From Candidatus Poribacteria bacterium (lineage in GTDB: Bacteria > Poribacteria > WGA-4E > PCPOR2b): 64,000 nt of DNA. Positions 6,400 to 6,988 of the stretch are shown here, one piece after another. A model generated the notes under the pieces. That model did no database searches. It saw only the letters and a program-made list of their open reading frames with translations, and was not told the DNA's origin. The stretch is from the NCBI GenBank assembly GCA_965215015.1, contig OZ244042.1, positions 2,432,001 to 2,496,000 of the forward strand. The letters run 5' to 3'. The number at the start of each line of letters is the position of its first letter. The first letter of the stretch is position 1. The translations under genes were made by a program, and so were the position numbers.

Positions 6400-6988
6400 G
6401 GGGGTGAAAAGGTTTCGACGGAAGTAGATGATATAAAGGTTGCATGTCGAGGTCTCCGCAGGCCTCGTTAAACAGGCGGAAACAATTTAATTGCCGATGA
6501 AGAATTGGCTCTAGCTGCTTAATAAAGCGGCTCGTCCGGCTAATTTGCGGTCCCGTCGAGTTAGCCCGACGTCAACAAACGGGCTGTGCGCCTTACTTGT
6601 TCTCAAGGGGCATGGCGCGAGACATAACTTGAGATAGTCCGCGGCGAATCCGGCATAAGGGAGTCCTGTGGACGAAACACCAAAATTTATGCTAAGCATG
6701 TAGTAGCCTTTATTGAAATGCTCTCGGACGCGGGTTCGATCAGTTTGGTCGACTTGGAGGGCAACCTCCTCGATTAAACCTGGCTTACATCGGTGAAATC
6801 TAAGAGATGGCGACATCTTATGGCAACACCGAGGGATTGCATGGTCCTGTAGAGACTGTAATGATAGGAGATAATGTCAGCGACAAATCTATGTCTCCTA
6901 TAACACGCTAGGCTCCATCATTTTGGTGGATGAAGATATAGTCCACGCCTCTGGGAAACCTGAGGATTAACGTGTCCCGCCACCTCCA
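6400..6988 (+). ncRNA. ssrA: tmRNA (exon 1 6400-6740, exon 2 6975-6988), interrupted by a group I intron
   Basis: 5' end GGGGGTGAAAAGGTTTCGAC. Acceptor stem GGGGGUG/CACCUCC-A with G3.U70. Tag ORF 6493-6522 encodes ADEELALAA followed by two TAA stops. The T-arm GCGGG-TTCGAT|T-CCCGC forms only after removing 6741-6974. Confidence 0.95.
6741..6974 (+). ncRNA. Group I intron (ORF-less, probably IA-like) in the tmRNA T-loop
   Basis: 5' exon ends in U with a U.G pair in P1. Terminal omega-G at 6974. P3 CCUGGC/GCUAGG, P4 UCGGUG/CACCGA, P7 GAGACUG/UAGUCC, J8/7 GAAGAUA, GNRA-capped P2, P5 and P9. Confidence 0.92.

Follow-up and report, generated by a model that had tools for sequence, protein, structure and literature searches.

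An intron-form gene for transfer-messenger RNA (tmRNA) is said to have been described for the first time by Williams in 2002, in Clostridium botulinum. The group I introns of such genes have since been collected in a database paper of 2025, which holds 883 unique intron-form tmRNAs from 21 phyla, mainly Bacillota, all of them interrupted in the T-loop and most at position 7, with a mean intron length of 293 nucleotides (nt) and a smallest gene of 545 base pairs (bp); endonuclease genes are found in 4.1% of these introns, 19 of the 23 lying in the P7.1 region, and the covariance model tmRNA_intron is used there with cut-offs of 150 bits and 500 bp (PMC11915505). The intron of C. botulinum, 287 nt long and preceded by a 5' exon of 338 nt, is cited as self-splicing (PMC2729099). 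Poribacteria are not named in the main text of the database paper, the list of phyla being placed in its Supplementary Table S2 (PMC11915505), and a literature search returned no relevant report of group I introns in Poribacteria, the only match being an unrelated one. This analysis concerns a tmRNA gene (ssrA) of that phylum, located at positions 6400-6988 (+ strand) of a 64,000-nt stretch, hereafter the window, that was taken from a Candidatus Poribacteria bacterium (assembly GCA_965215015.1, contig OZ244042.1, positions 2,432,001 to 2,496,000 of the forward strand). We consider it highly probable that this gene, the single ssrA of its genome, has the known intron form, with a group I intron of 234 nt at T-loop position 7.

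The likeness to described intron-form tmRNAs begins with the host gene and the site, which separates nucleotides 6 and 7 of the T-loop and is numbered as position 7 in PMC11915505, and it extends to the splice sites, where the U at position -1 is paired to a G in P1 and the intron ends with the terminal G termed omega-G. With 589 nt the gene is within the published length range and above the 500-bp length limit of intron-form tmRNAs, and, as in the published set, an endonuclease is usually absent and is of the LAGLIDADG type in the P7.1 region when present, which is likewise the case in the related genome G064 (PMC11915505). The intron described here is shorter, with 234 nt versus the published mean of 293 nt (PMC11915505) and the 287 nt of C. 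botulinum (PMC2729099), and its host phylum is Poribacteria, versus mainly Bacillota. The initial annotation of this DNA had presented tmRNA introns as a rarity known chiefly from C. botulinum, a statement that does not survive comparison with a collection of such size and breadth (PMC11915505). The kind of gene arrangement is already well catalogued, this very case is possibly in the database already, and nothing known about tmRNA or group I introns is changed by it. The compact predicted ribozyme, with its defined tRNA-like exon context, could still be a handy splicing model.

Structure of the interrupted ssrA gene

The genome-wide search with the Rfam tmRNA model RF00023 located one ssrA locus in the genome, which comprises 5.94 Mb in one contig and is 98% complete; the separate intact ssrA that might have been present elsewhere was not found by this search. 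The gene is split between nucleotides 6 and 7 of the T-loop by an insert at 6741-6974. Exon 1 (6400-6740, + strand) starts at G6400 (GGGGGUG...), a 5' end placed by reading of the sequence, and is unbroken up to ...GCGGGUUCGAU at 6740. It holds the 5' strand of the acceptor stem (6400-06), the tRNA-like and mRNA-like domains, the pseudoknots, the 5' half of the T-stem (6730-34) and T-loop nucleotides 1-6 (6735-40), and it was recognised by RF00023 with 136.3 bits over 6408-6742. The last letters of exon 1 are ...GCGGGTTCGAT at 6740 and the first ones of exon 2 (6975-6988, + strand) are TCCCGCCACCTCCA at 6975, where the gene resumes as UCCCGCCACCUCCA, and the junction of the joined exons reads ...GGTTCGAT-TCCCGCC. 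Exon 2, which does not differ from the 3' end of alleles lacking the intron, supplies T-loop nucleotide 7, the 3' half of the T-stem (6976-80), the 3' strand of the acceptor stem (6981-87) and the discriminator A6988; CCA is not encoded at the 3' end.

Removal of the insert, i.e., the joining of 6740 to 6975, gives a complete T-arm, with a 5-bp T-stem (6730-34/6976-80) and a 7-nt T-loop, UUCGAUU, as well as a 7-bp acceptor stem (6400-06/6981-87) that contains the pair G3.U70 (G6402.U6985). The restoration of a canonical T-arm and an alanyl acceptor stem, as put forward in the initial annotation, is directly seen in the sequence, and the restored parts are identical to those of uninterrupted alleles. 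The tag reading frame (6493-6522, + strand; GCC...GCT TAA), read in register with the Rfam alignment, specifies ADEELALAA, the same tag that ARAGORN reports for the intron-less relatives L013 and L019. In an alignment with 27 relatives the conservation of exon 1 equals that of intron-less relatives (12-25 differences per 341 nt within the genus), and in genome G020 a pair of the T-stem is changed in a compensatory manner, from G-C to A-U, across the intron.

It was anticipated that standard annotation tools would miss or truncate such a gene, and this was borne out with both tools used. The match of RF00023 lacks the last 15 model positions, that is the 3' half of the T-stem and the 3' strand of the acceptor stem, and ARAGORN called no gene in window 5000-9000; the latter program found no tmRNA gene in either of the two intron-plus loci tried, while it called tmRNA in intron-less relatives. 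The intron-plus genomes of the genus would appear to have no ribosome rescue, or to have lost it, if judged by ARAGORN (no tmRNA) or by Rfam (a 3'-truncated tmRNA). This annotation pitfall is real but already published, as the 2025 database paper was aimed at exactly that failure (PMC11915505). Two further Rfam matches, to SECIS_5 (29 bits versus a gathering cut-off of 50) and to tmRNA_permuted (34.6 bits versus 47), do not reach their cut-offs and are put down to chance or to the tmRNA itself. A scan of window 5400-7200 for promoters and terminators gave nothing usable.

A separate observation from the tmRNA searches is an 88-nt 'mini-tmRNA' present in two genomes of a neighbouring genus (L036 of G019 and L037 of G025, both at 1501-1588; RF00023, 66 bits). 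It consists of an acceptor stem, a GGAUUUCGACGG segment, a T-arm and a short linker, with no tag frame and no pseudoknots, and ARAGORN calls nothing there. G025 also has a full-length tmRNA, and no other RF00023 match was found in G019.

Fold of the intron

The insert in the T-loop of the tmRNA is confirmed as a real group I intron. It occupies 6741-6974 (+ strand), directly after the -1 U at 6740 and with omega-G at 6974. All 10 alleles of the genus that have no intron lack it at exactly that point, and the comparison set comprises 10 homologues. The Rfam group I model RF00028 matched 6731-6965 over its full length (model positions 1-253 of 253; 34.9 bits, E 3.7e-7 in a permissive local search), and in the genome-wide search over 5.94 Mb it was the only credible match (E 7.4e-7), the runner-up reaching 14.8 bits and E 0.79. 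The fold energy of the intron is -79.7 kcal/mol (z = -2.86), and none of 200 shuffles folds as well. No endonuclease open reading frame (ORF), nor any other, was found within the 234 nt, as judged from the ORF list and the comparison with homologues.

The helices were counted on 10 homologous introns (alignment A1; 76 pairs, 760 cells), with P3 and P7 bracketed as a pseudoknot. Standard pairs make up 97.6% of the cells, versus 38.8-45.9% in controls in which the partners were slid by 1-3 columns, and all the helices from P1 to P9 that had been drawn from the window sequence were upheld. Six pairs are changed on both sides, one each in the T-stem, P1, P3, P7.1, P8 and P9 (shuffled mean 2.7; 2 of 500 shuffles as high), and the covariation score is 0.098 versus 0.078, a value not reached in any of 500 shuffles. 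An unplanned negative control was provided by a nested version of the structure, in which P3 and P7 are 0% paired, versus 100% in the pseudoknot.

P1 (6736-6752) is formed by exon UCGAU (6736-40) together with C6741 and A6742, paired with U6746, G6747 and the internal guide GUCGA (6748-52); its seven pairs are 100% paired, one of them changed from A-U to G-C in G047, and the splice-site pair U6740.G6748 is found in all 10 homologues. The P2 hairpin (6756-6769, GGAGG-GCAA-CCUCC) is 100% paired. P3, with its 5' strand at 6779-6784 and 3' strand at 6907-6912, has six pairs, 100% paired, with one compensatory and three one-sided changes. The region 6790-6832 comprises P4 (6790-95/6827-32; 100% paired), which encloses P5 (6800-02/6821-23 and 6804-09/6814-19; GCGA loop; 96.7% paired), and it is followed by P6 (6833-6848; 6833-38/6843-48), 98.3% paired and 22 nt longer in G047. 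P7 is the guanosine-binding helix of group I introns, and the helix presumed to have this role here has its 5' strand at 6852-6858, with a bulged A6853, and pairs with 6939-6944; the six pairs are invariant in 10 of 10 homologues and fit the RF00028 consensus. The P8 hairpin (6914-6930) is 95% paired with one compensatory pair. The segment 6931-6944, composed of J8/7 (UGAAGAUA) and the 3' strand of P7 (UAGUCC), is identical to the RF00028 consensus GAAGAUAUAGUC and is likewise invariant. P9.0 (6945-47/6971-73; 100% paired) encloses P9 (6948-54/6959-65; GAAA loop; 98.6% paired, one compensatory pair) within 6945-6973, and the position of omega-G, G6974, is G in 10 of 10. The features that characterise a group I core in the sense of Michel and Westhof, i.e., the P3-P7 pseudoknot, P4-P6, P8 and a conserved J8/7, are all present, and the splice-site U.G, omega-G, J8/7, P7 and P9.0 do not vary among the homologues.

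The helix after P7, for which 10 bp had been proposed, is of the P7.1 type (6864-6901) and is 90% paired; its existence stood the comparison, while its tenth pair (6873/6892) is peculiar to the window among the 10 homologues, and nine pairs (6864-72/6893-6901), closed by a loop of 18-20 nt, are conserved. Subgroup IA is defined by two extra helices, P7.1 and P7.2, and the window has one 9-pair helix between P7 and the 3' strand of P3, plus a possible 3-bp hairpin in the loop of that helix, seen by eye only; the likeness to subgroup IA noted in the initial annotation is based on this one helix, and the label IA3 is the one that we take to apply to tmRNA introns.

Since the splicing of many group I introns in vivo requires protein cofactors, one may ask if an intron with so small a periphery (a single helix between P7 and the 3' strand of P3, short P2 and P9) would be removed in the cell only with the help of a host chaperone or of a maturase acting in trans, so that the group I fold would not be autonomous there. 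However, the loops of P2, P5 and P9 are all GNRA loops (GCAA, GCGA and GAAA, respectively), which are typical elements of tertiary contacts, the window's intron has no ORF, and the tmRNA intron of C. botulinum is cited as self-splicing in vitro (PMC2729099); a strict need for a protein helper is therefore considered very improbable.

Empty sites, decay and mobility

A tmRNA match was obtained with RF00023 in 29 of the 31 related genomes drawn. Within the genus, seven genomes (G000, G003, G004, G005, G007, G015 and G018) give the truncated score of ~136 bits and ten give a full-length score of 188-199 bits. The latter ten alleles share the sequence GGACGCGGGTTCGATTCCCGCCACCTCCA, which corresponds to the intron's two flanks in the window joined with nothing between them, and in L013 the identity to the joined flanks extends to the downstream TCTTTTTAAGA. 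The alleles from three other families are also uninterrupted (10/10), and all 20 empty alleles read ...GGGTTC(G/A)A(T/C)TCCCG... The placement of a group I intron at 6741-6974 in the initial annotation is correct to the base, given the ten empty alleles of the genus and the covariation that backs the fold. G016 and G017, of the same genus, yielded no tmRNA by RF00023 or by exon-1 DNA and were not counted as intron-less; G017 is a two-contig assembly, 96% complete. A BLAST search with the intron in 176 genomes of the phylum added G064 (same genus), G020 (another family) and G047 (same class), and a 24-nt match in G168 (E 9.7e-4) was treated as chance and not counted. The survey of ssrA in relatives, proposed together with the intron, has in this way uncovered both intron-plus and intron-minus alleles, with the intron carried by eight of the 20 genomes in the genus and by ten of the 176 in the phylum.

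These data also bear on the suspicion that the insertion is an artefact of assembly, a chimera, or a piece of foreign DNA wrongly joined to the tmRNA gene. The lineage is of a metagenome type, in which mis-assemblies do occur, but an insertion at the same base is found in seven other genomes of the genus, six of which are single-contig, and 100% of the sampled words of 6400-6988 are present in six sequencing runs from two studies (the DNA described here may itself stem from two of these runs). DNA runs labelled as sponge metagenomes contain the window stretch, and both exon-intron borders are crossed by contigs of RNA libraries. An artefact of this kind is accordingly the least credible of all explanations considered here.

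The introns are 234-236 nt long in six genomes and longer in G003 (264 nt), G047 (301 nt), G020 (586 nt) and G064 (638 nt), the extra length being mostly contained in the P7.1 loop, where these four have inserts of 30 to 404 nt. The insert of G064 matches LAGLIDADG_3 (33.3 bits, E 6e-8), with the two halves in different frames owing to a frameshift; only the last 30-45 nt of an ORF of the G064 type are left in G003 and G047, and the window's intron has no trace of it. No protein family was found in the insert of G020, and none of 147 pattern matches in a protein scan of metagenome contigs was confirmed as an intact endonuclease. The intron is best explained as a decayed mobile element that owed its spread to a homing endonuclease of the LAGLIDADG type, with its gene in the P7.1 loop; this gene is frameshifted in one relative, reduced to remnants in others and entirely lost from the window's intron. 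One genus thereby offers a series of states of one mobile intron, i.e., the empty site, the intron with a frameshifted LAGLIDADG gene, the intron with remnants and the minimal intron of 234 nt, and the host gene encodes an RNA of an essential type in sponge symbionts that have not been cultivated.

On a tree built from ~1.9 kb of flanking DNA the presence of the intron costs seven changes, which is the maximum for seven carriers, the starred branches alone forcing only two. Sister pairs that differ in intron presence are supported for G008 (minus) and G015 (plus) at 99/99, for G003 (plus) and G006 (minus) at 94/96, and for G002 (minus) and G004 (plus) at 81/99. It follows from the seven changes and from these pairs that members of the genus have repeatedly acquired the intron or lost it precisely. 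A pattern scan of public contigs turned out to be too loose, as 117 of 119 loci among the matches listed were chance matches devoid of tmRNA context; the other two among those listed, L125 and L158, are real intron-form tmRNA loci.

Relation to other group I introns

Where does the poribacterial intron come from? A model of the 3' part of the window's intron (R1), applied to 151 Clostridia genomes, detected tmRNA introns inserted at this very site in four of them, at five loci (33-47 bits). These share with the window the blocks AAACCYGGCUU..AUCGGUGAA, AYACCGAGG, AUAAYACGC and AAGAUAUAGUC, a P9 capped by GAAA and P9.0; they differ in that the identity is only 58-59% (three aligned) and in that they are longer between P7 and the 3' strand of P3, where the window has one helix. 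Among the Clostridia loci, L175 and L179 are located on one contig of G274, ~5.3 kb apart, and represent two 3' regions of intron-form tmRNAs with introns of 419 and 420 nt, in which the -1 nucleotide is C, not U (GGTTCGAC|...); a duplication around an integrated island may account for the pair. In L178 (G313, 1501-1581, - strand; 26.4 bits) R1 also matched a 3' region that resembles a group I intron and has no tmRNA exon after it.

An exact copy of the 21-mer that covers J8/7, P7 and P9.0 (window 6931-6951) is present in 82 metagenome stretches. Of these, ~70 are located near the 3' end of 16S ribosomal RNA (rRNA) genes, as judged by the 3' exon, only two represent poribacterial-type tmRNA introns and a few are in transfer RNAs (tRNAs). 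Two of the 16S-intron loci were confirmed as rRNA operons with RF00028 matches. The introns of 16S rRNA genes, from soil and other metagenomes, have the 21-nt core identical to that of the window, a likeness of the 3' part that is given by construction, as the set was chosen by the 21-mer; they differ in host gene, exon context and the P2-P3 region, and many of them carry long inserts. The introns of tRNAs resemble the window's intron in that they are compact and ORF-less, have its core motifs and interrupt an RNA of tRNA shape, and differ in that they sit in the anticodon loop, not in the T-loop; a preprint describes one covariance model built from tmRNA and tRNA introns together.

Several features of the 16S rRNA loci may be mentioned separately. 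In the metagenome contigs L180-L261 (e.g., L183, 3278-3653) ~70 have a group I intron just before the last ~45 nt of 16S rRNA. At some loci there are several introns (four R2 matches in L217, three each in L184 and L245; R2 is the 5'-half model given below), some of them with long ORF-like inserts. In L186, L209 and L252 the omega-G is followed by the apparent start of another copy of the same intron and not by the 16S exon; in L186 and L252 two 21-mers are ~806-808 nt apart, and all three loci may represent tandem or nested introns.

When the 5' part of the intron was compared by BLAST with the retrieved Clostridia and metagenome loci, only two contigs of the poribacterial type were matched, and because of this covariance models were needed. 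The model of the 5' half (R2) gave 111-141 bits with poribacterial-type tmRNA introns, up to 48.9 bits with rRNA-gene introns, 34-36 bits with Clostridia tmRNA introns and 16-21 bits with tRNA introns. On a 103-column tree the poribacterial and Clostridia tmRNA introns are not sisters, and a single clade was not rejected by the approximately unbiased (AU) test (p = 0.285). It may be speculated, at rather long odds in our opinion, that the poribacterial intron is not a diverged Bacillota tmRNA intron but the result of an independent second invasion of the T-loop site from the pool of 16S rRNA and tRNA introns, and that it is still cycling, by gain, endonuclease decay and precise loss, among Poribacteria that reside together in sponges. 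The idea is based on the identical 21-nt core shared with this pool and on the 5' half, which scores as well or better against it. If true, it would explain why sister genomes differ in intron presence.

Evidence from public RNA

Four metatranscriptome runs from four studies (including X15, X17, X18 and X19) were inspected as Logan contigs, the depths of which are a poor measure of abundance. In X15, X17 and X19 contigs that reach 6740 go on with TCCCGCCACCTCC(A), which is the joined form, present only as 13-14 loose letters; in X18 no loose end at 6740 was seen among those listed, and X17 had no cover over the intron. No joint across 6741-6974 was called in the four runs. The contig of the tmRNA body in X15 is the intron-plus allele of G015 over 6453-6708, with a word depth of 1837.9, and the contig that passes through the intron, similar to G015 and not identical with it, has a depth of 98.5, the one entering from upstream having a similar depth of 155. 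As far as contig depths can be used as a measure, these values are suggestive of intron removal from most molecules. The search for RNA across the spliced junction, which the initial annotation had recommended, gave a divided outcome, as joined contigs exist in three runs and the one that can be assigned to an allele comes from an intron-less genome, with none from the window's allele; the public RNA contigs are only suggestive with regard to splicing and do not prove it.

There are several observations that weigh against an intact, spliced group I intron at this locus and that are best considered together. Firstly, the RF00028 score of 34.9 bits, although obtained with an end-to-end match to the model, is below the gathering cut-off of 50. 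Clostridia tmRNA introns also remain below this limit, with 35.7 and 29.1 bits, and because of that the cut-off appears too strict for the tmRNA-intron subfamily. Secondly, the homologues are close kin (mean column identity of 79% among eight), the covariation among them is of modest extent, and no change at all is seen in P7 and P9.0; as the structure itself came from one of the sequences on which it was counted, the comparison with the slid control turns out too favourable. The window's P9 has a U6952xU6961 mismatch at a place where all nine others have a standard pair. As to RNA, the joined contig of X17 (315 nt, 14 differences) was ruled out as a spliced product, being an exact match to the intron-less allele of G006, and the remaining joined contigs are too short for assignment to an allele. 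Contigs with the whole intron are present in the RNA libraries X15 (depth 98.5) and X19 (236), which represents precursor RNA or DNA carry-over, and the window's own allele is covered by none of the four runs, all contigs having C at 6686 where the window has T, a letter that none of 17 other alleles of the genus shares.

Ribosome rescue and the proposed splicing pathway

The gene of the protein partner of tmRNA, smpB (5565-6029, + strand), is intact, encodes 154 amino acids (Pfam PF01668 SmpB, 192.6 bits, E 4e-57) and is placed 370 nt upstream of ssrA on the same strand. No short ArfB-like protein was found, the only proteins with an RF-1 domain in this genome having 361 and 363 amino acids, which is the size of release factors; ArfA-type factors were not searched. 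Given the single tmRNA locus, the intact smpB, no ArfB-type backup seen and the conserved exons, it is reasonable to infer, in agreement with the initial annotation, that ribosome rescue in this organism depends on splicing of the intron.

The opposite would be a dead relic that is not spliced any more, in which case ssrA would be a pseudogene and the cell would survive with no trans-translation. The sub-threshold RF00028 score, the U-U mismatch in P9 and the RNA runs devoid of this organism's allele are what could be expected of such a relic. They are opposed by the position of the gene as the sole ssrA of the genome with an intact smpB nearby, by the failure to find an ArfB-like protein, by a catalytic core that is invariant and helices that are kept by compensatory changes in 10 genomes, and by exons as conserved as those of intron-less relatives; a relic is considered very unlikely.

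For a spliced intron, the following pathway may be proposed, with catalysis and in vivo splicing being deduced from the fold and its conservation. The intron would fold into the P1-P9 core, and exogenous guanosine bound at P7 would attack after U6740, which its U.G pair with G6748 would keep in place within P1. The freed 3'-OH of exon 1 would then attack after omega-G 6974, and the ligated tmRNA of 355 nt would regain its T-arm and an alanine-accepting stem. Finally, the ligated tmRNA would obtain CCA, be charged and act with SmpB, adding the tag ADEELALAA.

Neighbouring genes

Between smpB and ssrA there is an ORF of 104 amino acids (6078-6392, + strand), which belongs to no Pfam family and ends 8 nt before the 5' end of the tmRNA. 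Upstream, a MaoC-like hydratase and a family III CoA-transferase are encoded at 3191-5392 (- strand), and downstream there is a protein of the penicillin-amidase family (7113-9488, + strand). Two tRNA genes, 6 nt apart and with scores of 72.3 and 61.8 bits, are located further away in the window (44308-44461, + strand).

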